Positions 3,064 through 64,000 of a stretch of 64,000 nt of DNA are shown here, piece by piece. Below the pieces are notes generated by a model. That model was given only the letters and a program-made list of their open reading frames with translations. It ran no database searches and had not been told where the DNA came from. Origin of the DNA: Moniliella sp. 'wahieum'. Lineage: Eukaryota. Position 1 is the stretch's first letter. Every line of letters starts with the position of its first letter. The translations under genes and the position numbers were made by a program. The stretch lies in contig RSEE01000124.1 of the NCBI GenBank assembly GCA_003971905.1, forward strand, positions 62,001-126,000. The letters are read 5' to 3'.

Positions 3064-6000
3064 TTACACTAGGGCCGCCTTGACCTCGTCCGGGGCATGG
3101 ACGGCAAGGTGCTGCAGCGCAGCCTGAACAAACGTTTGGACCGACGTGGTGTTGGCTTCGGCAAGTGGGAGCGAGGCCAAGTCGGTGAGCCGAACGGGAG
3201 CTTGGGCAGCAGCAAGCTTGGTGAACGATGCTTGGAACCCACCCTCCTCGAGATCGAGCATGTGCATCGCCTCATCCTCCCCTTCGGGCAGCGCGGCGGA
3301 ACCGACGTGACGGTCTGAGCAAGTGAGCGCGCCAGGGCCGGGGTGACCGACAGAAGCGGGGGTGCGAGCATGGCAGGTTCCTTGAGCAACCGGGCGAGAC
3401 CTGTGAGTGCCTGGCGTTGTTGGTACGCCGGGAGCTGTGGAAGGCTCGGTACAATAATGCCCGACAAGAGCTGAGCAAAAATGCCGGCCTGCACCTCGTC
3501 CACCGCGCTGATCACAGCGCCTGGGTACGGCGCCGGCAGACAGGCCAGCCCACCAATAAACCCAATAAACGCATGGGTAAACTTGTCTGTCCGCGCCGTC
3601 TGCAACCGTTGGAGGATTAGCAGGAACGCGGGTTTTTTCAGCGGCGTAAGCACGTTGCTGCAATCCGGGTGGTCAGTACAAGAACAGGTAGGGGTATGCG
3701 GGGATTGGGGGAGACGTACTCAGGCAAATACCGGAAGATGGCAAGGAGCAGGTCAAAGCCATGCGTGTCGAGAGCACGCGAGGTGATGAGGCGTTGGTAG
3801 ATGCCCATCAAGTTCACCACTTGGTTGTTGGCGACAAACGATTGTGCGCCAATTGCAAGGAACGCCTGGAAAAGACGGACGAGAGCGGGGACATTGCCGC
3901 GTTGCTCCCACAGGGCGGGCGTAAGGAGCGGAGGGACAAGCTCTTGGTAAGAGCTGGGCAGACCGGATGCCGATGCCGGGTGCAGTTCCAGCATCTGCGC
4001 CAGGACTTGGAACACGTAGGGTACAAACTCGGCCGCATCATTTTGGAGGATAGTGGTAAAGGGAGGGAAAAGGGATTGCTCCAGGGGTGCCAGCCGGACG
4101 GCAACCTCGTCGCCAGCATTGGTGGTGACAAAACGCACGAGGGCGGCAATGGACTCGAAGAGGAACTGGTTGAACCGGGGGTTGGACGGGTTCTTGGCCA
4201 CTTCCACCAAGATGGCCGTCAGTTGGCCCAAGATGGGTGTGGCAAACGGCGTGAGGGTGGTGCGAGCGGTGAGGATGAGGCGCATGACACACTTCATCAG
4301 ATAATCGTTTTCCGCAATCTTTTCGGGGGTGCCGCCGGAAAGGATGGTATGGAAACAAGCCATCAAGATGCGCTCCACAAATGGCTGAACGTCTTCCGCC
4401 GTGAACAACGGGGGTCGGAATCCAGTCGCCGCACCTGCTGCCCCGGCTGAGGCCGAGGTGCCCATCGCGGCGGCCGCAGAACCAGCAGGAAGAGGCTGCT
4501 TCATAAACAAGATCCGCTCGATCGAGATTGCAGCATAAGAGACTGTCACGTACGACTCGGATTGGAGATGTTGGACCAAGAGGGGCAACACCGAAAGGAG
4601 TTGGGGCTTGGAGTGGTTGCGGAAGGTGTAGAGGAACTTGATCGCATCGACTTGGAGAATAGGATGAACAGAGCCGGGAGCGGCCTCAAGGTCAGAGTAC
4701 ACATTGGTAGAGAAAAATTGGACCACATCGACGAGGGTGTTGACGCTGTTCACGCCCCCCTGGCGTGTGGCACCTTCGATCGCCACACCAGTCAAGAGGT
4801 AGAGGGCGGTATCTTTCTGTTTCCAATTGGTAACGGGGTCCGCAGCATAGGTACTCAAGTACTGGGCAATGTGGCCCTCGATGATGCCCGTCATGGTTTC
4901 TGGGAACTTGTGCAAAAGAGCACGGGTAAAGCCCACAGCGGCGGTGCGGCGAGTATCTGATGTATCCCCTGCACCGGAGGCACCCACAGCGGTGGCGGCC
5001 GCTGTGCCTGCATCGAGATCACGACGAATGTACTCCATCGGGTTGTCTTCGAACAATTCTTCGTCTGCCTCGCGCAGCTGAGCATTGGGGAGAATGATGG
5101 ACTGCGTCAACTGCTGCAGGGCATCAGAAGAGGAGAACATGGCGTTGTTGTTGCCCATGCGGACGACAGTAGAGAGCAAGCCAATGGCCTTGGCCACTAG
5201 CAGGTCGTATCTCCCCCGGGTCCGGTTGAAGAGAGCATTTCCCACACTGCCTCAATCAGCGGTGGCACGTGCTCCTCAAATACATCCAGGAAGCGCTGGC
5301 AATAGAGCTCGGCTACCTCGCAGATCCCGGCGCGAATCTTCTCTAGTGGCCCAGCCTCATCCGAAGAGTCGTCAGCATCACCCACCAATTCTGGCCGTGA
5401 GAAACGCAGCCAGCGAAGAAGGAGCGGAACAATGAGAGTGGAGAGATTGTCCTCGAACGCGGGTGGAAGGTCTTGGGCGCTCAAGTCGTAGAAAAGAGAG
5501 ATCTCCAGACTGAGGGCGTTGGCCAGGGCGGGAACCTGGGCGGGTGGAGTGGAGGGGTTGGTGAGGGCCTCGTCGGTCTTGCGAAGCAATTCAAGGAAAG
5601 GAGGATTGAACTTGGCAAGGACAAAGTTGATTTCGGACCAAAGGGCGTCAGAGCGGAAGGCAGCGCGCCACTTGCGGAAGATAGTGTGGGCGGTGTTGAG
5701 GACAGAGAGGAGAATGCCCTGGTCCGGATCAGTGAGGCGGGAAACGAGCTCGTCAAGAAGCTCGGGCCAGGCATCGGGGAAGTCGTGATCGGCAACCTGG
5801 GCAACGAGTTCGGCGAGCTGGCTGCGGAGGGCTGAGGAGGAGGAGGCCGAGGTGGCGGCGACTTGCCAGAGGACAGCAAGACTTTGGGTGCGCACCTGTG
5901 GCTTGTCCGAGTCGGGGACGACCTGTTCAAAGTCGTCTGTGGCGACCCACCCGGAACGGGCGAGGTTCTTGACGTTGGGGCGGCGGCCAGGCGCACGGCA

Positions 6001-13976: not shown

Positions 13977-16269
13977 GAGGGAGCGGATGGCCTGTGGGAG
14001 CTGGTTGCGGGTGGGATGCGGCTATAAGAGAGAGCGCACCACCATCCCCACACTCGGATTCGGACGGCACAATGTCCCATCAAGCCAGTGTGTGGGCTGG
14101 CCAGCCAGTATAGGACGATTATATCTCGTGCTCACGCGCTCAAGCGCTCACGCCTCGGCAGGCCTCCCTCCGTCTGCTGCCCAGCCCAACACACCGACAG
14201 CCCTGAATGGCGGGACCCTGCCCTGTCAGCACGCAGCCGTGTCCTGTCTTGCCACATACCAGGCGCGGTTGGGGTCCAACGGGCGGGATTTACTTGGTTG
14301 ACGTTTTTGAGTACTGCCTACTGCGTACACTCCTTAACTCACTACCCTTAGGCTCACAGGTGGGCGGATGAGCTCGAAGGGCGCTCTGGCCAGGCCCACT
14401 TCAAGCTTCAGGCTCAAGGCACTCGCCTCAGACCCTCAGGCGAGCCCTGTTGTGCCTCGCCAGTATCCTCCGGATTCTCCGTTCGCCCAGCCTGCAACCG
14501 CAGATCGCCACTGCTCCCCTGGACCTGTGCCTGATGCCCCGCACGGCTCCGCGCCAGTGCCTGCTTTTGTCCAGGCCTGCCCCCCATCGCATTGCAAGTA
14601 CGAGGTACTACGTAGCACGTAGGCTTTCGGGTAGTACATGGTATGCAAAAGGGTATACATGGTATGACATGATGACACTCTTAGATGGCAGGGATCTTAG
14701 TAGTTACTATCTACTAGTTACTATTGGCTACTAACTTGATCGATGATCCTAGGGGTTTTTTTTGTTCCGCCCCGCATGTTTCGCCCACAAGGCACGTACA
14801 CACGCGCCGTGCCTGGCGTCGAATATATTATCGCGGTGGCGAGGACGGGGCTGCTGCGGGTCGCGAACAGGACGACCGGGGAATAGAGTATCTGTACTGA
14901 GTACTGAGTATAACTGTATGAGTACGAGTCTCAGTACGGAGGTACGGAGGCATACTGAGGTACTGAGGCCCTATAGGAGCTTGGGGCTTGGGGCTTGGGC
15001 CTGAGCCTGAGGACAGATACGAGATGAGATCGATGATCAATTGACGACAAACTGAGGGAGATTGGCACGTGCACATATGTATGTATCCGACCGCCCAACC
15101 GCCTCTGTCTCCCTATCGGGGTCCGGCGACACGGTCATCATGCATCATCTGCATCATCGATCATCCACATCGAGCATCTTCCCCCATACACTCCTAGAGG
15201 TGCACCGTGCCTGTATGGTGGCCCTCTACCGACGCCAGTGAGTATACTGAGTGGGCGAATGGATAAGCGCATGGTGGATGATCGATGAGATCTGAGATCG
15301 GAGATCCGAGATCGAGGACCGCTCCTCAGCTCGGGGCCCCACCTGCGTACCTCCTGTGTCTTCCTGCGGCACAGTGCTTGGCCTGGGAAAAAGGCAGGAT
15401 CGAGGATACTACAGTGGGATCTAAGATGGCCCGCGGCGCTGCTCAATGGGAGAGCTAATCCAGGGAGCTATTTTGCTCACCGCACTCAGTGAGTACTTGC
15501 TTCATTTCCCCACCAACCCAGGGTGCGGTTCTTGGCACTCAGTTAAGTACCTAACCGTCACGCGTCAGGTACCTTTTATATATCAATCCCCCCCCTCTCT
15601 CTCTGAGATTTAACCTCCTTTCTCTCAAACCCCCCGTTAATCAATCTTAGTCATCCTAGATCTCTCCGGACCCACCCGCAGGTACCAGCACCTACGGGTA
15701 TCATTCGAAGCCACACGTCCATCCTCTGCATCATCAATCCCAACATTCAAGCTTCAAGCTTCAGAGCTTCAGGCTTCAAGCTGCACGCCTGAGGATTCGT
15801 AAAAAGGGTGCAAAAGCCGGAGGGATATAGGAAACAGGAACGAAGGGGAGGGAGGAGGGGCAGCAAGGGTCTTCAAGCTTCAGCCTCTATTTGTTGAGAA
15901 TGGAACGGGTGTGCTCTCAAAAGCCTCAAGGTTCAAGCTTCAAGCCTGCTGCACCCACATCATCGACATCTTCTGATGAATTTGATGGATCCCCTGAACA
16001 ACCTGTGGTCCAACCCACGGTTCAGGCAGTTGAGGCTGGCAACTTTCGTATGGTTTAGTTTATAGTAGGGGTGAACTTGGTACAGTACACTGTCCATACC
16101 CGAGTTATACGAGAAACAGCCTGCAGGGTGTATAAGCATAGCAGACAAAAAACAAACACAAGGAGGCACAAGTGAGGCGGTGGAACGTGGATCCTACTAT
16201 CGTCTTACATACAAGATCCGACAAAACCTTAGATCTTACTACCGTAGGAAAAGAAAGGCAGATACGTAC

Positions 16270-17476: not shown

Positions 17477-19150
17477 CTAGTCGTCGTCCCAGTTGGGGTT
17501 CTGCTTCGGCGCCTTGATGCCCGCCGGCTTGGCCATGATGATCGAGTCTACGTTGAGCACCGAGATGGCGGCACCAAGTAGCGTACTTGATCGCCCACAG
17601 CTTGGCCGACAGCGCATCCAGCACGCCTGCCTTGGTTGCCGACGTTACGCCCGTGTCATCGTTGTTGTCAATGTCCACCCACCTCGGCCTTGCCGTCCTG
17701 GTGCGCGGCATACAAGCGCGCAATCACCTCGGTCGCGTCCAGCCCGGCGTTCTCCGACAACGTCCGTGGCACCACCTCCAACGCCGCGCCAAAGCGCTTA
17801 ATTGCATGCTGCGCAAGCCCGGGCGTGCGTTCCCCCAGCTTGGTCACCACCTGTGCCAACTCAATCTCCGTCGCACCTGCCCCAGGCACCAGGCGGGCGT
17901 CCTTGGTAAGCGACTTGACCACATTCACACCATCGTCAATCGCCCGCTCCACATCGTCCAGCACATTCGACGTGGCACCACGCAAAACGATCGTAGCCAT
18001 TTTCGGTTTGGCCTTGCCCCCAGCCCTTGTGGGTCTTGGCGGAAGACAGTGACTCGGTCCCCACCAATCTCAACCACCTCGATGGCGTCGATCCAGCCAG
18101 CCTCCTCGGGCAGGGGCGCACCAAGCCGCGCAAGCGGCGTCGCACCCACCAAACGCGCCAGACGCGCCACCTCGAACTTGGACAGGACCTTGATACAGAG
18201 AATGTTGTATCGGTTGAGGTAGTGGAGCGCCAACTCGCCCACAGAAGATTGAGACACCACCACCTTCACCCCTGCATCGGCAATTTCCTTGATGGCCTTC
18301 TCCAGCTGTGCCTCTTCGCCCGCCGAAAAGGCTTGGAGCTCTTTTGCGTTGTGCAGCAGGACCGTCCCTTTGGTCTCTGTCTGGCTAATATCGATCCCCT
18401 GGGTAAAGATAGCCACCTTACCTCCCTTGGGAAGGGCGCGTACTGAGCCTTCGGGTGTTTACCAAATACCATGCCGCGTAAGACTTGCGACTGCGCCAGC
18501 GATGCACCCAGAATCTTAACCACCCGCACATTGTCCACATTAAACCCAGCGAGCGATGGCTTGGTCTTGTTCCCGTCCGGTAGGACAAGAGAGATAGCCT
18601 GAGCAACGAGCGGAGCAAGGAGCGTCTCGTTGCCATACTGTTTGCTTGCTAGAACGGGCTGGATGGCCGTGGTGAGGGACTCAAACCGTCGGTGGGGACG
18701 CCAACTGCGCCACCGAAAGTTCTTCCAACGCTGCCAGCGCAGCGTCCCGCGCCGTCTCGTACCGGCAATAATCTCGCTCGGGTGGAGACCAAGCGTGACG
18801 AGCGCTTCGGCCTTCTTGAGCAGTTCACCAGCCAAGATCAAAACCGTGTTCGTTGCATCGCCCATCTCGGCCTCTTGTTGTTGCGAGGCCATGACAAGGA
18901 GTTTCGCAGCGGGATGAACGACTTCGAGTTCGCGAACGATGGTGGCAGCGTCCGAGGTGACAAAGAGGCGCTCCAGATGGTTGATGACCATCTTGTTGCG
19001 GCCATTGGGGCCAAAGGAAGTACGCACAATCTCACACAGCTCTGTGACGGCAGTGATGTTGCGCAGCACGGCATCTTCAATGCCCGAGTACTGTTTGTAC
19101 CCCTCTTTGAACAGCTGCGGACCGCCCGCACGGGGAACTTTGGGAATGGC
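17477..19150 (-). CDS. CCT8: T-complex protein 1 subunit theta (CCT8); start codon garbled, frameshifts
   Basis: KVPRAGGPQLFKEGY, RTSFGPNGRNKMVINHL, VTSDAATIVRELEVVHPAAK, EMGDATN, FNVDNVRVVKILG, TETKGTVL, LDDVERAIDDG, PGAGATEIELA, C-terminal QNPNWDDD*. Confidence 0.95.
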
Positions 19151-19548
19151 GGCGGAAGGAGAGAAGGTGGTGGGAGGCCAAGCAGGAGGAGAGCGCCACG
19201 CAGCACGTTGCCCGCCGCGTCTCTCCGCTCTTCCTGGCCGCGCCGAAGCACACAGAACCCGCGCCACCGGAATTGGGTCTCTGGTTCCGCCCCAGCCGGT
19301 TCGCCCCCCTTGCAACGTTCAAGAATGGGTGTTATGCATGTTATCGATTATCATGTTCAGCGTTCGTTCAAATTTCAGGCTTTCAGACGATGGTGCGATT
19401 GCAACTTTCAAACTCAGGTCTCTGCCTCCGTCCAGCCGACCATCTATCCTTCCATCTCCCCCCCCAGTCTTTGTACGATCGATCCTTGTGCAGACATGCA
19501 GAATTCGCATCCCATCCGCTCGGCCGGCGCTCCTCCGCCCCATTCATC

Positions 19549-20646: not shown

Positions 20647-20683
20647 TCAAGCTTCAAGCTTCAAGCTTCAAGCTTCAAGCTTC
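20647..20683. repeat. Tandem heptamer (TCAAGCT)5
   Basis: tcaagct x5 + tc read directly. Confidence 0.95.
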
Positions 20684-48905: not shown

Positions 48906-51900
48906 CGAATGTGCTGGCTCGTTCAATGAGGAGGGCTCTCCGTGTGGTGTTTTGTGAATCAAAAATGGTTGCTATTACTACATGGTGCGTATATCCTGGT
49001 GCCGTTTGCCCTCCAATAGCACAGACGATGTCAATATAGAGCGTCATATCGACAGCAACGCAAGTAGACTTTTACCTGAGCAGAGAGGACTCTTCCAACG
49101 GGTCAGGTAGAGAGAAAAGGACGGGCGATTAGCGCCCAGATGTGGTTAATTTAACGCGTATAATGTAAAGGGAGTTTTGGCAGGTGCAGGAGCAGAGCAT
49201 GATGGGCAGGAGACGGTAGATATAGGCTTGTCGCATTTATGCGGGGAGTGCCAGGGGGGTGGGCAAAACGCAGCGCAGCCACATGGTGTCTGATAGACGA
49301 GAGACCTGGACGAAAGAGTGTGATGACCAATAATGACCATGTTCTCTTGTCGCATCTCAGCTCCACGAAAGTAGGTTCCAGATTCACCACGGCATCACGG
49401 TAAGCGTTTCGTCGTGACTCGTACCCACAGTTAGTTGGCACTGTAATGTGGGCAAGAAAGTTGCCTTTGGCCACCTCGGGAGGGTAAACGACCCGGGAAA
49501 AAAGAGGCGCTGGTAGGACTCAGTCTTTGGCCACGTGGCGTATAGGCGATCGCATGTCGACCTATAGTCCGATTGGAATGACACTCCACTCCAGTGACCC
49601 CAGCTCTTCTGGCTCCGGGGCTGGAGTCGACGGGTTTTCGCTGGGCCTTCTTCCCTCCGCCCAGTGTCTCTTCGGCACATACTCAATCCGTGGCTGTGAA
49701 AGCCCGCTTAGTTGAGTCGGGCGTTGGGTCCCTGGCTTCCCGCTGGGCGCCCTCTAACCCAAAGGAACTGGCTATAGAGTTCCGCGTCTCGCCCACTCCG
49801 TATTGCTTACTCCTTCGCGCCCTCGTTCCTCTCCTTCCTCTTGTCCTTATTGCATTGAAGGTTGAACTAGCGTTATTAGCTTACGAGAAGCTATCTCTGA
49901 CAGTTCCCGCCCTGCACAGTGCAATCATCCTTAGCTTGGTAGCGTAGCTACTTCTCGGCAGTTAACGACAACCGTGGTTCTGGCTCTCACAGGTGTGACC
50001 GATTTATCGCGCTTACCGATTGATCGCCCAGTTTAGTGCTTCGCCCTAGCCCCCCCCCCTCCCATCCTTTCTGTCTGGGCTCGAGTCTGATTAAGCCTCA
50101 TGCATCTCATGTCCTGAAGATTTTCATCATTTGAACAACTGCTATTACGCCCCTTTTCGTCGTGCCAGCTGCCCCAACTTGGAGACCCCATAGCCGTTGA
50201 GCGTAAATAAGGCAGCTTGTACCCAGTTCCCCTTTCCCTCTCTACCATCAGCTTCACACTGACCTGCCCTATATACCCTTGCTTGTTCCCGCGAGCATCT
50301 CTTTGACTCCCTACGAAATGATGGGCACAATTGGCAAAACTTAAACCGACCGGGGCCCCACAGCGGTTCTGTCCCGCCGCTCCACTGCGATGGTAGAGTG
50401 TGAGTGGATTTGAGATCTGATTTGAGCGCAACGAGAGGAAACTGAAAGACCCTCGGTCGCATAGGTTGGCCCCAAGCCTGTTCCTATAAGCGCTCGCGGG
50501 GTAATTAGTTAAGGGCTTAACGCGGGAGACAGTCCCAATATCTAATCATAGCTGCCAAGTACCTCGAGATCATCCGCCAACTACACAGATTCAGATTGGT
50601 CTCCAGCTCCGCATCATGTGTCCGTTCCACGCCCAGTATGTACAAATGTGTGTCATGTCCTTGCTTGAGCACTTCTTAACATGCACCTACTTTCGGCATC
50701 GCTACCATCGTTGGATGTGAGCACCGAACGTTTGGTATAGGAAGATGAAATTTCTGCAACTGAATCGTCCAGAGGACTTGTGTGAGCTGAGAAGGAAAAA
50801 GCTGATTCACAAGATTCAGGGTCAAAATTTCAACACTGGCGCCCAGTCCAAAGCTGGCCCCTGGACAAGGTGGTGAGGGCGATGATCCTCCAACTCGTGT
50901 GCAACATCCTCGATACTCAATTAGCAAACTGTGGAGGAACAGCACGAGACTAGACTGGGATCAAGACGATTGCCAAAGACTATCGAGTGCTAGGACCTGT
51001 GGACCATTCAGGGGATGATCAGAAATGGAGTGGAAACACCCATTGCGGGACAGGGGACCACAAATAGTGATATATCCGTACTTACGGATAGTACAACCGA
51101 TGACCGCCATTCCTGCTACTGCCGGAATGAACACATTGCTACAAGGATTCCAAATACCAGGGACGTACCCCAGATCTTCCTCCGCTTTGGTCACGACAAT
51201 GCAACGATTGTGCGCCACCAAAACGGCGAATAAAATGTTTGGACGTTGGAAACAATGAATTGACGAGTCGGACTCTTAATGGAGCTGCGTCACTCCACGG
51301 ATATCTCCCAGTCTCAATTGTATCCAAAGGAGCACCCTCGATCTTTGAAGAATCAGATGACAGACTCTGGAGCACCTGATCTGCCGGCGAGACCTCTAGT
51401 TCCTGAGTTAATGCGTTGTCAATTATATGTTTTCAATATAGTGATTAATCAGTCACAAAGAACCATACACCATGTTAGGTGTCCCATGTGAAGTCAAACG
51501 ATTGTTTGTGTCCCCATGATTGTAACAGGTAATAAATCGTCACGCCACTGAACGTGAGAACAAAGACTGCCCTTACCGAGTGTCAGCATTCGAGGCACTG
51601 GATGGAACAAAGAGCATCAGTATCAGACATCTGAACAATTTCACTCACTTCGACAGTCGAGCGTAGCGATCCTCAGTTGACCTGTGACTATCTCAGTATC
51701 CACGGAGAGAATGGCCACCAAAAACGCCAATGCAATTAGAAACGCTAGAAATTCTGGATGCCGTGAATATGGATCTTCCGGTTTCTCACGATCCTCGGGG
51801 CGGTATAGCAATTCCTTGCCCAAGAACATCCGCCTGCCGCGATTCCTGTTCACTACGCGAAGGTTGCTCTACTACTTTGCAGGGAAGACATTTCCTGGGA

Positions 51901-54900
51901 GTCAGACAGTATGTATTTCGAAAATTCATAAACAATGGTGTGTGGTTCTTGGATGAAGTGTACGCACTTCCCCAAAATAAGCAACCTTAGCCAGCGGATG
52001 TTTTCGTTGTCATTGTCAGCATTTCTGCAAATTGTTGTACAAATTAATTGCGTGCTTAAGTGGTTGCATGGAGATCATATTTTCCTTTTCTTCTTTAATG
52101 GGAATGGGGGCATGGCTCTTGTCAGATCTATGCAGTGAATATCTTCACTACCTCCGTGTCCAGGTCGCTGTGCACTCTCAATATCATGAACACTATATGC
52201 TACTTAGTGGTGAGAAATCTAGTCATCCAAACACATGTCCTGATGGACTGCGTATGCTAAGGAGACGACATATTGGGGCGGCATTTCAAATCTTAAAATG
52301 GGGCAGTTGATTGTATCTGTGGGCACTCAGCCAATGTGTGACAAGTGAAAGCAACACTTCACAATGTAATTGTCGACTATGTCCTGTCGCCCTTGCAACT
52401 AACACTCCATGCTGGTATTATACATCCGATTAGGCAAGTAGTCTCTGGGACTGAATTGTCTAGAAAGCTGGCTCGCTTTAAGAAGGGTTAATTAATTATC
52501 TTGGCTTCGTCTAGGAGAGTCGACTATAATTGGCCCTGCCCAGCGCTGAAGTTGGAAAAGGGCATTCCGGGGTGTTCATGCCCAGATTTTAACAATTCGA
52601 ATACCAATTATAAGGCTACTAGAGGCGGGTTTTCATTGCAGTTCGAAGCAGAGCAGCGGAATATTGCTGGTGAATCCATACATTATCGACACTATCGTAA
52701 ACTAACCCTTCCACAAAATGGCCATGCTTCAATGACGTGTTGACGTCTACGAGTTCGCAGGCTTGGCCCTTCGCCGTGCAGGACGAGCAGAAAGGAGTGT
52801 CCCCGGTATGATGTTGTGCCCACCTTTGTTGGAGAGCAGCGATCAAAGAGATGTTAAACGCGGGCGGGATGACTAGGCCGGATTGATACTTCTGCGAAAA
52901 GTTGGGATCAGAAAGCCAGCAATCCTCATCCACTTTCCGAGCCTATCTTTTCGAAGTGGCGGACGTTCCTTGGGCAGGTAGGCGCTCCAAAGGAAGCCAA
53001 CGTACAGGGGTTGTGAACCGACATTTTAATAGATTCTCTGGACGGAATCAAAGCAGCAATTTGTAGCACTCCCTCAATGTTATTGATGCGTATTGTGTGG
53101 CTAAATGGGGATGGAGGTGCTACAGTCATACCATTCACTGCGTAGCTCCGACAAGAGTTATGCTTCCATTCACAGGAAGGGAAAAGATAAGAACGCTGGC
53201 TGCAGAGAGCCATTGGTCACATATCACCAGCCAATTAATCCACATAAGAAGATGTGCTTGGGAACACTGACTACTGATGATGAGCCAGCGATGGTCGCGC
53301 TATTCTCAAGTTCTCAGAAGATATACGCTTTCGGTCAGCGTGCCCACAGCATCGTTAAATCCGCTTCCACCCCATCCACAAAAAGGCTTTCAGGGTCGGG
53401 ACTAAGAACCGCTTTTTGGGCATAATCCCATCCCGCACGACCGAAAGAAGGAGGGGCGTGCATGGCATTGGCATGTTCATATTTGCCTGCTCTTCTCATG
53501 TCTTCCATCCCACTCATGGAATTTCTCGAACCGTCTAGGATGAAGGCACCAATCAGGTATGAACGGTTTTGCATCACGTTGTTGGATCCGACAGTCACTA
53601 TTTCGCGACGACTGCTGATATGTCACGAAGCGAGCTTTGGGTCGCCTTTTACAGCCACATCCACTCCCTTATCGTAGCTCTTGCTTCTCCCTTTCTCTAC
53701 ATATCACTACTTAAGTTCTCTATTAATCGCTATCGTGACTCGGATTCTCGGCTATCTACGAAACCGCCGGTTGACAACACTCATCTCTTCTCCGTTGGCG
53801 CTCATCTAAAAATCCAAAACACTACTCATGGTTTCGACTTGGTTTTCATAAGACCTGGAGTTCGGATGGTCCTCAATGGCGATGCAATCGTACTGGTAGC
53901 GGTGGTGGTCTAAACCAACCAGCAACGCCTACAAAGGAACATCAAGCAGCGGGTCGCCACCAGGGGCCAAGCTGCGGAACAAAAAAAAGGGAGAGAAGAC
54001 TACGAAAATCCTATAGGCCTGGGGAGGAATTGAAGGGACGTTGGCCAAAGCAGGGAGCCACCGATGGCTCAATAGGTTTCTCGCCTCATTTCTCGTCTTG
54101 AGCTCGCTTTGGCCTTGACCCTCGGCCTCGTCTCTCACCTCGTGCCTTATGTCGTGCTTCGTCCTTTTCCCCCCCTTTTCGTTTTGTAGACGTGCCGTTC
54201 ATCTTTAGTTTGTTCCCCTTCTCTTCTATCAAGCATGCCTGTTCTTCGATCAAATCGTGATGGCCCACCAAGCGGCCCATCATTCTTTTCCCCTCACCCT
54301 TCTTTTAGGAAAACTCCATTCCAGAAGAACTACCCTCCGATCAGCTCGCTTGTCCTTCTTCGCCCATCGGAGTGCCGCACTTTCTCGTCCGGCCCTTAAC
54401 GTGAAACCTCCTTGTAGACGCTACCTGGCTCTGCCTGTGACGAACAGCAAAGCACTGCCCGCGACCCTCCTACGTTCAGTCCAGTGTTCCCTTGTGACAC
54501 GCGCGTTCAGTCTTCCGTGAGTATTGTCTCGGATGGGCAGGGAAGGCCCCGCCTGGGAAGCCAGCCATCCCGTTGCAGGGTCGATCCTATGAGCCGCAGC
54601 GTCATCTTTCCAGTCAGGCGATCTCATATACGTCGAGGCGATGACGACGTGTCCTTCCCCGCATCGCCTTCCAAGAGGGGGTCACAAACCCAGATTGTAT
54701 CCTCGTTCGGTTCGGGCCAACAACACCACACCTCATCTGACCACTGCCGCCGCTGTCTCTCCTCTTTTTATGACAATGATGTTCATATACATCGCCAGCC
54801 CCCCGCCACCGAGCTCTTGGGTCACGCCATGTGCGCTGTTAAAAGCATGATCAGGCCTCCATGGCCCCACTTATCATATCGTGGCCGCTGTCAACTAAAG

Positions 54901-57472: not shown

Positions 57473-59322
57473 TCACTGGGGCGCAGGCTTGATGCCGTCA
57501 AAGAACGGGTGAGTGAGCAAGTTTGCAGCGTCCCAACGTCGTGTGCAATCCAAATGCAGACACACCCTTGCCATATCCACCGCGGCATTGACTAGTTTGA
57601 GATGGCTGTCGCGATCGGGTACGTCGGACGTATCGAACAGGTGCGGGTTGATCAACTCGATCCACTCGGGGATGCGTCGCGTTGGGCTATGTTCGATGGT
57701 CGGAACGGTGCAGATAAACGTTCGGTTGTGCATCAGGGCCACCTGTTCCATCCGTCGTTTGCCAAAGATGGTCCCGAGTTCCATCAACGCCTCAATGTCG
57801 TCGACCGCATTGAACGGGAAACGTTTAGTCAAAAAGCCCAGCATGATGACCCCAACAGCCCAAATGTCAATTGCAACCGTTTGATCTGGACATTTGAGCA
57901 ACACCTCGGGCGCTCGGAATCCACGTGTGCCCGCCCGGTTGGCCCGTACCGATGGCCGCGTATCTTCCCGAGGGTAACCCGGCTGGGTCGCTCCGCCCCA
58001 TGCCATGGCAATGTTGGCCTGAACGTGTTGACGTGCCGGCGGCTGGGAGCGCGAGGTGGAGGAAGCGCCGGGCACGGGACCTAGACCCGCACCGCCGCGA
58101 CGAGAGGAAGAAGTGGTAGATGTGGTGGTGGTAGAGGAAGCGGCCGGACCCAGCATGGCGCCGGGCAAGAGAGAGTGGAGTAGGCCTCCGGGTTGATGTG
58201 TGTGACGCCATGGGGGTAGTCGTCGTCGGGAACCTGGTGATGGCACTTGTTGCGCCAAGTGGAGGAGTCAAAGTACTCGGCCAAGCCAAAGTCGCAGAGG
58301 GTGCCAGTGCCGGTGGCGGGGTTGTAGAGAAAGTTGCCAGGCTTAACGTCACGGTGCATTATATTGCGTTGGTGGCACCATTTCAAGGCGGAAATGAGAG
58401 AGTGAAAGTAGTACCGCAGGTCACTTAGGGGGATCTTGCGGAAAAAGTCACGAAAGTCCACATGCCGCACATAGGGCATGACCGCAATCACTTGGTCTTC
58501 GCACCGCCAAGCGGTTATCAGGTGCGAGACGCATGGCCCGCCGCGGATTCTAAGGATCTCAAGTTCGTTGTAGATGCGGCGTGGGCTGCTGGTGACAAAG
58601 ATGCGTTTAAGAGCCACATAGACGGGTGCACCGGTGCGACGGAAATAGTCGGCAGCGCGCATGTACCTTGGCCTTAGCTCCAATGTGGGTTTCACTTTGT
58701 GAGCTTTGAGCTCAGCTTGGTCCGTGTCCATGTGGGCGCGCATGGTGTCCGGCAGAGCGCCCGGTACCATAGAGCGCGCATAGGCCTCAATCCACTCGTC
58801 ATTGTCGTACGAGTCGTGATACACGTCGATTGCCTTGTATACCGAGCTAAATGTGCCCTCGCCCAGTTTGTCGACAATCAGATAGTGGTCGCGCAGGCCC
58901 TCAATATTGCGCTCCAAGTACTCCACTTCTTCGCTGATGCGGGCCAGCTCTTCGTCGCTGCGATCGGAATGGTGTGCCAAGCCAGGGAGGCCCGCGTCAC
59001 TGTCCTGGAGAGGGGGGTAGATGCGCTGGTGAGTAGACGTCATCGTCGGTGTTGTCGGAGGGGTTGGTACTGGTGCGGGTGGGTCTGAGGTCTTGGAAAT
59101 GGTCGAAGGAATCGGGGGGTGCGAGGCCGGGGAAGGAATCGGAGGAGGCAGAACCGCCGGGGGAGGGGAGATGGGAGGGGGCAGGGCGTGTGGCGAGACG
59201 GGCATGGGGTTGGGCAGGAGCCGGGAGCGGGGAGGAGGGTGGGTCGAGGTAGGCGCTGTCGTAGGCGTCGGCCGGGGCAAGATGGGACGGGGAGAGGGAC
59301 ACGGCAGCCAGCGGGTGGCCAT
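57473..59322 (-). CDS. CDC7: Dbf4-dependent kinase catalytic subunit Cdc7/Hsk1; frameshifts
   Basis: DKLGEGTFSSVYKA, VALKRIFVTSSPRRIYNEL, HRDVKPGNFL, LCDFGLA, RANRAGTRGFRAPEVLLKCPDQTVAIDIW; ACGCGT at 59771 upstream. Confidence 0.95.
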
Positions 59323-60251
59323 GGGGCGGTGGTGGGTGGGTGGAGGCGCGTCGGCGGAGCGTGCCTGCGTCTGCTGCTCCCTCGGCCGCTGCGGCGCAGC
59401 CCAGCGTCGCGCACACTGCCCCCATGCCGCCCTCCCGCCCCGCCACACCCGGCGTGCCACGAGGCACTGCCACTCGCTCACCCGTCGCCGCCCGTCACCA
59501 GACGCCCCCCCTTTTGTTTGGCACCCAACAACCGCCGTTTTTCACCTCCACGGTCCGTTCGTCCATGCGTCTGCGTCTATCGGGAGGCTTCCGTCGTGTG
59601 GGGGAACGGGGAAGGGGGTTGCCTTATCGGAACGACATGCAGCTCTGCGCTGGACAGAAGAGGGGGCGGCGTGTACGGTGCTCCTCTCAGATCTCACCCA
59701 AGCAAGCGTTGGAAGGGCCGCCAGCGGAAACCCCTGGAGCTTTTCTAAAGCTTGAACGTTGAACGTCTGGACGCGTTGAGCCCAGGCTGAGCTAAGCGTG
59801 CCTACTTTAAACGTTCAAGCTTCAAACTTTGCGACGGCAGAAGGACTTGAGCCGGAACATGCATCCCCCAGAGAAAACGCCTGGTCGGTCTGGTCGATGG
59901 TGCGTGTGGAGCGGCAGTGCTCGGTACTCCATCCGGCTCGTTGGCAACATGCACCTCGACAGGACACGACGCTGATGGATGACAGTGAGGAGGCTGGTAC
60001 CATTGGAGCGGTGTGAGGGATGACGTGCCAACAGCGGCCCGGCGAGACGCAGACAGGACGCAGCCAGCAGACGAGACGCGCTCTCCGCATGAAACGTTCA
60101 CGGGCCCGCGGCTGCCCCAGCCGTCTGCCTCGGCGCGTCCTCTGGCACTGCACCCGTCTCGCACGGGCCCGTGTCCATCCCATATGCCAAGGGGGTTCAG
60201 CCAGTACTCAGTACCCAGTGCATACTGCGTGACGTGACAGCTACTGCCACG

Positions 60252-60425
60252 ATATATACGCCCCCACGCTTCCTTCCGGCCCTTCCCCCCCCATCACCTT
60301 CACCACCTCATTTTTTCCAACGTACGTTGTCACCGCATGGGCGCTTTTACGCCAAAAACCCATCCCCGCCTACGTTATATCCCGCTAACCCCATATGGCA
60401 TCCTTCTATTGAACGGTGGCGCTAG
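60252..60425 (+). promoter_or_regulatory. TATA box (60252-60258) and 5'-UTR spliceosomal intron (60322-60425) of the oxidoreductase gene
   Basis: ATATATA, C/T-rich leader, GTACGT donor, GCTAAC branch point (~60384), TAG acceptor 13 nt before the ATG. Confidence 0.65.
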
Positions 60426-60438
60426 GAAGAAAGTGCTC

Positions 60439-61071
60439 ATGTCGCCCCACCACGCTCCCAAAGTCATTGCCGTCGTCGGCGCCTCGGGCCGGGCCGGGTC
60501 GGAGATTGTAAAAGAATTTGCGGCACGTGGCCACAAAGTGATTGCGATTGCGCGTTCGGTGGCCCGCATCCCTACGGGTCCCGGGATCGTGCCGACAGAA
60601 GGCGATGCGTCGGATCCGGCATCGTTGACACCGTTGTTGGAAGGTGCCAGTGCGCTGGTGAGCGCGATGCGGTTCGATGTGCCGGTGGAAACGTTGTTGG
60701 AGGCGATGGCGCCCGTAGGGATCAACCGGTTGCTGGTGATTGGCGGTGCGGCGGCGTTGTATGTCGAGCCCGGGATGCGGATGATTGATATGCCCGACTT
60801 TGATCCCGAGTTCAAGCAGTACGTTTGCAAGGGAGTCCAGTGGATTGATGTGTTGGAGTCCACGCCTGCGTCGTTGGACTGGACGTACTTTGCGCCTCCC
60901 AATGCGTTTGGTCCGGGCCCGCGCCTCGGTCGTTTCCGTCTCGGCCACGACAAACTCGTTACCGACGAGTGTGGTGAGTCATCCCTCAGCATGGCCGACG
61001 CTGCGATTGCCATTGCCGATGCGATCGAGAAAGATCTGCACCGCCGCCAAGTTTTCACCGCGGCCTACTAA
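60439..61071 (+). CDS. NAD(P)-dependent oxidoreductase, bacterial COG2910/YwnB (atypical SDR, biliverdin reductase B-like) type
   Basis: IAVVGASGRAGSEIVKEFAARGHKVIAIAR, RLLVIGGAAAL, LDWTYFAPP, GPRLGRFRLGHDKL, SLSMADAAIAIADAIEK..HRRQVFTAAY*. Confidence 0.88.
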   Translation: MSPHHAPKVIAVVGASGRAGSEIVKEFAARGHKVIAIARSVARIPTGPGIVPTEGDASDPASLTPLLEGASALVSAMRFDVPVETLLEAMAPVGINRLLVIGGAAALYVEPGMRMIDMPDFDPEFKQYVCKGVQWIDVLESTPASLDWTYFAPPNAFGPGPRLGRFRLGHDKLVTDECGESSLSMADAAIAIADAIEKDLHRRQVFTAAY

Positions 61072-61300
61072 GCGGGCCAACTGTTAGCTATCCTGTGTGG
61101 TATGGCTCGTACATCCACCGCGCCCTGTTATTCCCCCACCTCTCTTATCTATATTGTAGCAGCCTCTTCATTAGCTTCCCTCCTATAGTCGCAGTGTGTT
61201 AATAAGTCAATGTGTCCTTATAATGACTGCTTGCAAGCTTCAAGCTTCCCGACACCCAAATAACGAATGACACCAGGAGTTCCCCCTAGACAACCATGTA

Positions 61301-62803
61301 CTAACTAACCCATGTGCGAGGTGAGTTACTTCGCAAGGGGAGGGACGGCAACCGCAGCTGGCGCCGCCTTGCCGGCTTTGCTTCCGCAGGACCTTTGCGT
61401 CCGCGACCGCGAGGCTTCCGCGGCGCCGACGCGTCCGAGGCCTTGCCGGGACCCGACGCCTTGCTTGCACTCGACGCCTTGCCTGCACCCGACACCTTGC
61501 TTGCACCCGAAGCCCTGCCTGCACCCGACGCCTTGCCTGCACCCGCTGCAGCCGAGCGGTCCTGACGCGGCCTGCGGCTGGACGGCCGCGGCGGGCGATC
61601 CTGCTCCTCCTCAGTGGGAGGTGGGAGCTGGTACACGGACGGGGGTGGCCGTGGCATTTCGGGAATGGTTTGGCCGATCAACCTCTCGATCGACTTTAAG
61701 TTGGGGACGTCGTCCTGGGAAACCAAGGAGACGGCGCTTCCCTCTGCGCCTGCGCGGGCAGTGCGACCGATCCGATGCACGTACTGTTCTGCACGTCGGG
61801 CAGGGCGACATTGACCACGTGCGAGACACCCTGAACGTCGATCCCGCGCGCGGCGATATCCGTTGCGCACAGGACGCGTACCTGGCCCGTTTTGAATCCC
61901 TCGAGGGCGGCCTGGCGAGCGGTCTGGGACTTGTTCCCGTGGATGGCAGCGGCCGAGATGGAGGCCTTTTGGAGCGTAGCAGCAAACTTGTTGGCCTGGT
62001 GCTTCATCTCGGTAAAGAGGATGACACGGCTGAATGCCGGGTCAGAGGCAAATCGACAGCCAATTGTCGCTTCTCCTTCTGGCCACAAAGATGACGTTCT
62101 GCTTAATCTTTTCCGCCGTCGTGGCAGCTGGGGTGACCTCGACCCGAACAGGGTCGGGCCGGAGAAGGGTGTGAGCCAACTGGGCCACCTTCGGGGGCAT
62201 AGTAGCCGAAAAAAAGTAATTTTGCCGTTCCGACGCCGGCGGTAACTGAGCAACGATCCTGCGCACATCATGAATGAACCCCATATCCAACATCCGATCC
62301 GCTTCGTCCAGAACAAACGTTTCGACCTGGTCGAAACGAACGTAGCCTTGGCCGTGCAGGTCAAGCAGGCGACCGGGCGTAGCAATCAAAACGTCCAGCC
62401 CACCCTGCAAGGCGGTCGTCTGAGGCTTTTGGCCGACGCCACCGTAAATGACAGCGTGATGGATGCTCGATGGGCCTGAGCTGGGCAAGTGTTGGCTGTA
62501 CTTGGCGATGGAACGGTCAATCTGGATGGCAAGCTCGCGGGTTGGGGTGACAATGAGGGCACGGAAAGCGTTGGTTACGCGCTTGACTGGGTGGGTGGAG
62601 AGACGCTGAAGGATGGGGAGAGTAAAGGCAGCAGTCTTGCCCGTACCGGTCTGGGCAATCCCCAATAAATCTTGGCCCGCTAGCGCAACGGGGATCGCCT
62701 GGGCCTGGATGGGGGTCGGATGGACGTACCCAGCCATGGCAAGCGCCTGTTGCAGCTCGGGCCGCAGCCCGAGGCGGGCGGTAAACTTGGTCGCGGTGTT
62801 CAT
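61301..62803 (-). CDS. DEAD-box RNA helicase of bacterial RhlE type, intronless
   Basis: [132 protein letters not shown]. Confidence 0.93.
61428..61545 (-). repeat. 18-bp tandem repeat encoding ~6 copies of GA(G/S)KAS in the helicase tail
   Basis: gacgccttgcctgcaccc variants; protein [36 protein letters not shown]. Confidence 0.85.
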
Positions 62804-64000
62804 GGGCGGCTGAGGGGGTGAGTGATGGAGGGAGGCCAAAGAAGAAACACAAAGAAGAAATCCAAGGCCTGCTCTGCCCGGCGGAAGAAAGGAGGGGGGC
62901 AGCCCTACGTGGACGACGGCACAAGTGGAGTCCATTCCATCGATCGGTGCAGACAAAACTTGCACTTTTCTTTCAACTTTCAAAAGACGGGCTTCAAAGA
63001 TTCAACGTGTTGTTTGTTTCCTGCCATGGTGGAAGCCCTGTTCAACATGGTGGACTTGACCGAATATAGTTAGTAGCGGTGTGCTGCTGCCACACTTCAA
63101 AGGGCTGATCGCACCCAATGGACGGGTTGGAGCAGGTGGAAGCTTCAGGAGCTGTTGGCCTGGTAGCGGCGATGCTGCTGGAGTGAAACAACGGTCACCG
63201 CACACTAAAAAAGACGTGACACAACATGTGTTGGGCTGTGCGTACACCGCCGGAGAACCAAGAGGCCAACACCACACGGCCATCCTGGCAGCCAGCGCGA
63301 AATTAAAGAGAACGTTTGGGGTGAAAAGCGGTGCAGAAGCCTGAGGGACAAGAGCAACACTCCTTGGCCCCGCCCTAGCAGCTTGAATCAGGAGCTTCAA
63401 TAAGCTTCAAGCTTGAGCGCGCGGTCAATCTCAGGCCAGCCCCCTTGCGGTGCCGACAAAACGAGGAGTTATATACGGTTTTACCTTGTAGGCATTGTCC
63501 GGACTTTTATATGCTTCTACTGTAAGAGGCAGATAGGGGCTCTTTAGTATAGGTGGTTTGTATGATACAAGACCACTAACTACTTACTAACGTCCGGTGG
63601 GCTCGCTGGTGATCCAGATTGAGCATCTCGATACGTCTGATGCATCTCTTCTCCTTTTTAGACCGCGGTCTGGACAGTCCGGTCCGTGTGTCGTCTTGTC
63701 CCCATGTTTTTGGCCTGCTGCGCCCAGCTTGTGCTACAGAGCCATGTGGAGCCTTGCATGGACGCTTTTTAGCCTATTAGGCTTTCTGCCTAAGGCAACA
63801 ATGGCCTTTAAGCGCTATAAGCCGCTGTTGAATCGATCGCTCCCGGGCGGCATACCTCTCTCCTACTACATCCTGTGGGGCATTGGACTAGCTCTAGGGA
63901 CCATATCTCGCTCGTGTACAAACAATCTCTGTTCTCTACAACTTGCGAGGACCTGACCCAGTCATCAGTCACAAACAGTAACTTTACTAGTCAATGTTCA

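Follow-up and report, generated by a model that had tools for sequence, protein, structure and literature searches.

Gene transfer from bacteria to fungi is well known, and the described cases mostly concern metabolic enzymes and transporters. The DEAD-box helicases of the RhlE type, in turn, have as their bacterial partner the RNase E degradosome, which has no fungal counterpart; their expected biochemistry is the ATP-dependent unwinding of RNA, together with a basic tail that binds RNA non-specifically. Here we describe an RhlE-like helicase gene in a window of 64,000 nucleotides from Moniliella sp. 'wahieum' (assembly GCA_003971905.1, contig RSEE01000124.1, positions 62,001 to 126,000 of the forward strand), which an initial annotation made from the letters alone had proposed to be a bacterial helicase embedded in a fungal chromosome. 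The gene is read on the minus strand from an ATG at 62803 to a stop codon at 61303-61301 (all coordinates are those of the window), and its closest relatives are all proteins of soil alphaproteobacteria, of the Rhodospirillales type. We consider it likely that the gene is resident in the fungal genome, was acquired horizontally and is probably intact.

Gene structure and family of the helicase

Three overlapping open reading frames (ORFs) on the minus strand, at 62042-62983, 61696-62385 and 61301-61870, cover the helicase. Alignment to the closest bacterial proteins, with the boundaries placed by script, resolves it into four pieces (A, M, B and C) separated by three frame breaks (Table 1), with the final ~25 residues of piece C and the position of the stop being uncertain on account of the indel errors of the assembly. 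At each break two bases are left over, and if one residue is allowed per junction the spacing to the protein of Aliidongia dinghuensis is exact to the residue. Accordingly, each break amounts to a one-base deficit, involving no larger lesion, and an intron is ruled out as the cause of the frame changes. Nowhere is there a gap of intron size, and compared with the bacterial proteins just two insertions are seen, of 6 and 2 residues, in agreement with the earlier description of the gene as intronless. That description had also presented it as a single intact ORF: while the gene, its motifs, its coordinates and its flanking motif were given correctly, and all six of the peptide strings quoted are present on the minus strand within 62803-61301, the quoted motifs lie in different frames, and the single ORF does not stand in the sequence as assembled.

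Both RecA-like domains score above the respective Pfam gathering cut-offs, and the read-through protein displays the motifs of DEAD-box helicases named Q, I, Ia, Ib, II, III, V and VI in this order, at residues 25, 50, 87, 142, 166, 199, 314 and 344. Among the NCBIfam models, piece A scores best with RhlE (257 bits), followed by RhlE2 (252) and RhlE1 (242), ahead of CshA (207), RhlB (198), SrmB (190), DbpA (188), CsdA (184) and DeaD (174). The three long pieces are also colinear with the model of Escherichia coli RhlE (PRK10590). However, scored piecewise, they sum to about 401 bits (257 + 97.3 + 46.6) against an equivalog cut-off of 743 bits, a value that the nearest bacterial relatives (502-509 bits) likewise fail to reach. 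Since the equivalog cut-offs are missed, we label the protein RhlE-like on its profile scores rather than as a certified equivalog.

Comparisons with solved structures and database proteins point in the same direction. The best database match of the first domain, from A. dinghuensis, attains 300 bits at 67% identity. Of the solved bacterial structures, Thermus Hera matches the first domain at 155 bits, E. coli DeaD at 152 and CshA at 150, while the solved eukaryotic helicases range downward from Vasa (148) through DDX23 (144) and Dbp2 (140) to DDX3X (at most 130) and Ded1 (122); neither eIF4A nor Mss116 is found among the best 60 of 113 matches in the Protein Data Bank (PDB). No solved eukaryotic DEAD-box protein thus reaches half of the Aliidongia score, and membership in the Ded1/DDX3, the Dbp2/DDX5 or the other solved eukaryotic families is ruled out by scores of 122-148 against 300 bits. 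With RhlE as the top NCBIfam model and this gap to the eukaryotic proteins, the original assignment to a bacterial RhlE type over the eukaryotic families holds.

Probable bacterial origin and residence in a fungal chromosome

To place the protein among its relatives, a collection of 5.8 billion clusters was searched in two size ranges (409-2000 and 128-408 residues), listing the best 120 of 8000 matches in each, and a second collection of 1.84 billion representatives of any length, listing the best 150. The maximum identity is 67% in the former and 64% in the latter, and the names among the matches listed are all bacterial or bare functional terms (RhlE, helicase). Only names of these two kinds are likewise found in the ten plus ten clusters that were opened, with the nearest Atlas clusters being 100% bacterial. 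With each break written as X, the read-through protein shares 57-63% identity over 412-484 residues with a group comprising Aliidongia and metagenome-assembled genomes of Rhodospirillales.

A quick tree of 105 rows under the LG model places the gene within a clade of 37 rows that comprises Aliidongia, Azospirillum, Azospirillaceae and Rhodospirillales sequences (SH-aLRT 99). In a more careful maximum-likelihood tree (LG+C20; 66 rows, the two longest and 35 redundant rows having been dropped), it lies in a 26-row Rhodospirillales-type clade (support 100/99), therein within a subclade of Aliidongia and Azospirillaceae (98/91), and as the sister of seven Aliidongia-group rows (97/88). FastTree with 371 rows sets the gene beside the whole of a 90-row clade (0.993), its long branch being unbroken by any single sequence. 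Judged from these trees, membership in the Rhodospirillales-type clade is robust, while the exact sister group is not.

In the one order of the Genome Taxonomy Database (GTDB) that was searched, all 33 of the 33 genomes carry a relative; in 20 of them a copy reaches 58-63% identity, while another class of paralogues is seen at 49-54%. A related-locus search of bacterial genomes recovered at least 597 relatives among 600 stretches, 51-61% identical, with the closest group not being among the matches listed. Metagenome contigs queried with two degenerate patterns, one for the fungus-specific insertion and one for the N-terminus, gave zero matches each.

The window itself encodes Dam1 of the DASH complex, Cse1, RNase H1, the V-ATPase subunit H, CCT8, Ars2 and a CDC7-type kinase, from which it follows that it is fungal. 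The best named relatives of its CCT8 are those of Parajaminaea (77%), Meira (74%) and Sympodiomycopsis (71%), followed by Tilletia and Malassezia; by these sequences, the host belongs to the Ustilaginomycotina and is closest to the Exobasidiomycetes. Within this setting, as assembled, the helicase lies between a gene for an NAD(P)H-binding oxidoreductase, which itself adjoins the CDC7 gene, and non-coding DNA. A tblastx comparison of 59500-64000 with 101 bacterial loci yields dense similarity only across 61600-62800, where the 100-base bins hold 173-403 matches as opposed to 11 or fewer elsewhere; in this comparison no bacterial neighbour gene was detected beside the helicase.

The composition of the gene also resembles that of its surroundings. 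The helicase pieces have a GC content at third codon positions (GC3) of 0.70, 0.79 and 0.70, compared with 0.673 for ten coding segments of the host and 0.76-0.96 (pooled 0.858) for 11 helicase genes of sampled alphaproteobacterial relatives, although the latter come from the Rhodospirillales order and other loci and not from the Aliidongia group, and the donor's own GC may differ. Similarly, all three pieces fit the host table better by a per-codon log-likelihood ratio (0.03 to 0.17), the host segments themselves giving 0.10-0.29 in a calculation that was not leave-one-out.

The 120 bases ahead of the ATG exceed the 95th percentile of the window (0.675) in pyrimidine content, running through TTGGCCTCCC to a GCC-rich end in CAGCCGCCC before the start codon, and the last 25 bases contain no purine-rich Shine-Dalgarno sequence. 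The DNA before CCT8 (~19145-19200, minus strand) is likewise rich in pyrimidines, with TTGGCCTCCC and then a GCC-rich stretch, and the two may reflect a common core-promoter or leader style of the host. The host motif AAGCTTCAAGCTT, which had been reported on both sides of the helicase, does occur there as exact copies (Table 1); the window contains 22 matches to it on both strands with at most one mismatch, against 0.06 expected from shuffled sequences. The underlying heptamer AAGCTTC forms short tandem arrays at about ten sites (15749, 15928-15947, 20649-20682, 29347, 29493, 34903, 35405, 59817, 61235 and 63402), with up to about five copies at 20649-20682. The three sites that were placed against genes (59817, 61235 and 63402) are all intergenic, and the heptamer may function in regulation or be linked to terminators in this host.

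Taken together, the host-like GC3 and codon choice, the leader, the flanks, the heptamer on both sides and an identity of at most 67% to any bacterial or metagenome protein among the matches listed favour residence of the gene in the fungal genome. The proposed horizontal acquisition is borne out by the nesting of the protein in the Rhodospirillales-type clade, along with the codon usage, the leader and the lack of bacterial flanking genes, and we regard the transfer of an RhlE-like helicase into the fungus as well supported in silico.

Frame breaks and rival explanations

The same kind of frame break is observed in genes of the window that are clearly of the host. CCT8 (19141-17480, minus strand) switches frame six times in 1.66 kb while being colinear with, and free of introns relative to, two homologues, one 91% identical and the other from Meira miltonrushii. 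Cse1, also on the minus strand, changes frame once at about 5210 (5205-5215), where the Pfam profile continues from position 151 to 152 and leaves no room for an intron. In view of these two genes, we read the breaks in the helicase as errors of the assembly, which carries roughly one single-base indel per few hundred coding bases; three breaks in a 1.5-kb gene are within this error background. As a separate observation, the CDC7-type kinase (minus strand) shifts frame at 58081-58258, in a low-complexity insert of the kinase where no canonical intron is evident; in an assembly with such errors, the shift may stem from a further indel instead of an intron.

The helicase pieces contain no in-frame stop, and every motif looked for is present. 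At the near-invariant columns of the alignment (at least 98% conserved) the fungal residue is the consensus in 80 of 80 cases, and at columns conserved to 90-98% in 52 of 58, while at the variable columns it is so in just 34 of 128. Overall, 132 of the 138 conserved columns are kept, which compares with 128-138 of 138-139 in six bacterial control rows. Such a distribution is what a protein maintained by selection shows. Hence, the breaks most likely stem from single-base errors in an assembly prone to indels rather than from decay, and the real gene is probably an intact and intronless ORF of about 500 codons, its intactness being something we infer from the sequence.

Several points weigh against this picture, besides the sampling behind the GC3 comparison. 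Six well-conserved columns do differ, with three of them lying beside motif IV (FTRTKHGAN to FTEMKHQAN). The terminal branch measures 0.8 in the LG+C20 tree, where the median is 0.27, and the position within the clade varies with the method, FastTree setting the gene beside the clade and not with Aliidongia. The trees were built from bacterial rows, and the distance to eukaryotic DEAD-box proteins comes from the PDB scores only. No orthologue was found in other fungi among the best 120 of 8000 matches per search, where fungal homologues below ~60% identity could be hidden, and a close relative of the host is present in the database (CCT8 at 91%), yet no helicase above 67% is among the matches listed. 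Furthermore, one error-prone assembly underlies both the linkage of the gene to its neighbours and the reading of the breaks: the joins are known from it alone, and no more than 1.2 kb of downstream sequence lies within the window.

These points feed into three other explanations. One is that the gene was indeed acquired horizontally and is now a pseudogene, with the three deletions being real and no full-length helicase being made. In its favour, three breaks of the assembled frame fall within a 300-base stretch of the second domain, and the long branch and the substitutions beside motif IV fit this reading; however, essential host genes are broken at equal or higher density, the pieces lack not only stops but also larger indels or lost motifs, and retention of the conserved columns to the extent seen is unexpected for neutral decay on so long a branch. 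We therefore consider decay unlikely, and would caution that frame breaks in this genome do not permit a pseudogene to be called before accurate reads are at hand. It could also be supposed that a contaminating alphaproteobacterial fragment was joined into a fungal contig during assembly, for which the nearness of the gene to the end of the window with its sparse downstream context, the low base quality of the assembly and the failure to find the gene in other fungi among the matches listed might be cited. Such a fragment should bring bacterial flanks with it, as bacteria are gene-dense in this region, but the bacterial similarity is limited to the ORF; moreover, GC3 and codon choice match the host and not the homologues of the sampled alphaproteobacterial relatives, the leader resembles that of CCT8 and has no ribosome-binding site, the host heptamer stands on both sides, and no known bacterium among the matches listed is closer than 67%. 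An artefact of this kind is accordingly very unlikely.

The lowest probability, a very slight one, is what we assign to vertical inheritance, in which the gene would be a eukaryotic one, for instance a relic of the mitochondrial ancestor, that was lost almost everywhere else. In its favour, the nearest relatives are alphaproteobacteria, and fungal homologues below ~60% identity might lie beneath the thousands of bacterial matches, of which the best 120 of 8000 were listed. Nevertheless, the gene branches from within Rhodospirillales-type sequences, at the depth of a family or order, and not at the base of the alphaproteobacteria, it has no N-terminal import extension relative to the bacterial proteins, and no eukaryotic name occurs among the matches listed or the clusters checked, the nearest of which in the Atlas are wholly bacterial. 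A resident gene of horizontal origin is the reading that we prefer.

Tail, neighbouring DNA and comparison with known helicases

Table 1. Helicase pieces, frame breaks and associated elements in the window (coordinates are positions of the 64,000-nucleotide window; profile positions are those of the 456-position E. coli RhlE model)
Feature	Coordinates	Strand	Content and basis
Helicase piece A	62084..62803	-	Residues 1-240 (240 residues), ATG at 62803; motifs Q (GYVHPTPIQ), I (AQTGTGKT), Ia (PTRELA), Ib (TPGRL), II (DEAD) and III (SAT); Pfam DEAD (PF00270) 151.5 bits (gathering cut-off 26); RhlE profile 5-220
Break 1	62082..62083	-	Two leftover bases, context GTG GC CAG; one-base deficit, frame of A to frame of M
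Helicase piece M	62049..62081	-	11 residues in the third frame; aligns with KEKRQLLADVL of the Aliidongia protein
Break 2	62047..62048	-	Two leftover bases, context TTG CC TCT; one-base deficit
Helicase piece B	61792..62046	-	85 residues; motif IV region (ILFTEMK), QTAR, motif V; Pfam Helicase_C (PF00271) 70.6 bits (gathering cut-off 23.5); RhlE profile 245-323
Break 3	61790..61791	-	Two leftover bases, context GTG CA GAA; one-base deficit, return to the frame of piece A
Helicase piece C	61301..61789	-	162 residues (to 61304) and stop codon, in the frame of piece A; motif VI, end of core at LKSIERLIG, 123-residue basic tail rich in Pro/Ser/Ala/Gly; RhlE profile 326-447
18-base tandem repeat	61435..61545	-	6.2 copies with 83% matches; source of the (S)GAGKAS repeats in the tail
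Putative 5' leader / core promoter	62804..62923	-	71% pyrimidine on the coding strand
Host heptamer motif AAGCTTCAAGCTT	61235-61247	.	54 bases past the helicase stop, between the convergent 3' ends of the helicase and the NAD(P)H-binding gene
Host heptamer motif AAGCTTCAAGCTT	63402-63414	.	Upstream of the helicase, about 600 bases from its ATG

The C-terminal tail of the protein contains 26 lysines and arginines as against 8 aspartates and glutamates, and its net charge of +18 over the last 123 residues agrees with the basic tail noted earlier. Its sequence is unrelated to the tails of the bacterial relatives, and because these do not resemble it the repeat that encodes part of it probably arose after the lineages split.

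Two further features of the DNA were noted. The NAD(P)H-binding gene (NAD_binding_10/NmrA-like; 60337/60439-61071, plus strand), which is convergent with the helicase, is itself bacterial-looking: its nearest Atlas clusters are all bacterial (score 0.98), and it is 42-45% identical to the best alphaproteobacterial NAD(P)-dependent oxidoreductases; of the 401 alphaproteobacterial genomes sampled, it turned up in only 15. It does not occur beside the helicase in the bacterial loci that were fetched, and it may represent a second acquisition at the same spot. Farther off, the region 50001-54000 has a GC content of 0.46-0.51, compared with 0.55-0.65 elsewhere, and no ORF of 200 or more codons; this could be a repeat, a relic of a transposon or some other AT-rich spacer.

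With regard to history, the donor would have been a Rhodospirillales-type alphaproteobacterium near Aliidongia and the Azospirillaceae, and the recipient an ancestor of an Exobasidiomycete-like fungus. By homology, the product is predicted to be an ATP-dependent enzyme unwinding RNA duplexes, while its expression, cellular location and physiological role are matters that we only infer. Going by what is known of RhlE and other DEAD-box proteins, the two RecA-like domains would bind both ATP and RNA, opening short duplexes locally, and the basic, repeat-bearing tail could hold the enzyme, without specificity, on structured RNA. With the RNase E degradosome absent from fungi, the helicase might act in this host as a free-standing RNA chaperone, the likeliest settings being ribosome assembly or biogenesis, or growth in the cold. 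The start of the protein is level with those of the bacterial proteins, as expected from the minimal N-terminus that had been described, so nothing suggests import into mitochondria. A mitochondrial presequence was considered and rejected, with the ATG aligning with the bacterial N-termini and an in-frame methionine 44 codons upstream being unconvincing in this assembly. We would give about an even chance to the fuller scenario in which a plant-associated lineage of basidiomycete yeasts domesticated the alphaproteobacterial RhlE-like helicase, equipping it with a host-type leader and a new repeat-built tail and using it as an extra RNA chaperone, for example under cold or stress. If true, this would offer a simple test of a bacterial RNA chaperone working in a eukaryotic cell. 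Full-text literature searches, taking in part of the text of PMC9887622, returned, among the entries listed, no report of the transfer of an RhlE-type helicase into fungi.

Among known proteins, the closest parallels are the RhlE-like proteins of Rhodospirillales, such as GCM10011611_45490 of Aliidongia dinghuensis and those annotated as 'DEAD/DEAH box helicase' in Azospirillum spp. These have the same order of domains, all the motifs, a start at the same level and a basic C-terminal extension, and they form one clade with the fungal protein, which is 57-63% identical to them as a whole and 67% in the first domain. The fungal protein differs in a 6-residue insertion in domain 1 (the LPSSGPSS region), in FTEMKHQAN for FTRTKHGAN, and in a tail that is unrelated in sequence and built on the 18-base tandem repeat; the gene differs in its place on a fungal chromosome and in a leader and codon usage that resemble those of the host. 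E. coli RhlE and Pseudomonas RhlE2 and RhlE1 represent the top curated families for every piece, with colinearity extending over 5-447 of the 456 positions of the E. coli model, though the fungal protein falls below their equivalog cut-offs. With Vasa/DDX4, DDX23/Prp28, Dbp2/DDX5, DDX3X/Ded1 and Has1, it shares the DEAD-box fold of superfamily 2 and its motifs. Finally, as in prokaryote-to-fungus transfers generally, we see a single intronless ORF of bacterial type among fungal genes, with its composition drifted toward that of the host. What sets this locus apart from the usual transfers is the cargo, which is not a metabolic enzyme or a transporter but a helicase acting on RNA, and it would be an unusual one especially in having kept all the catalytic positions together with the codon usage of the host and a host-like leader.

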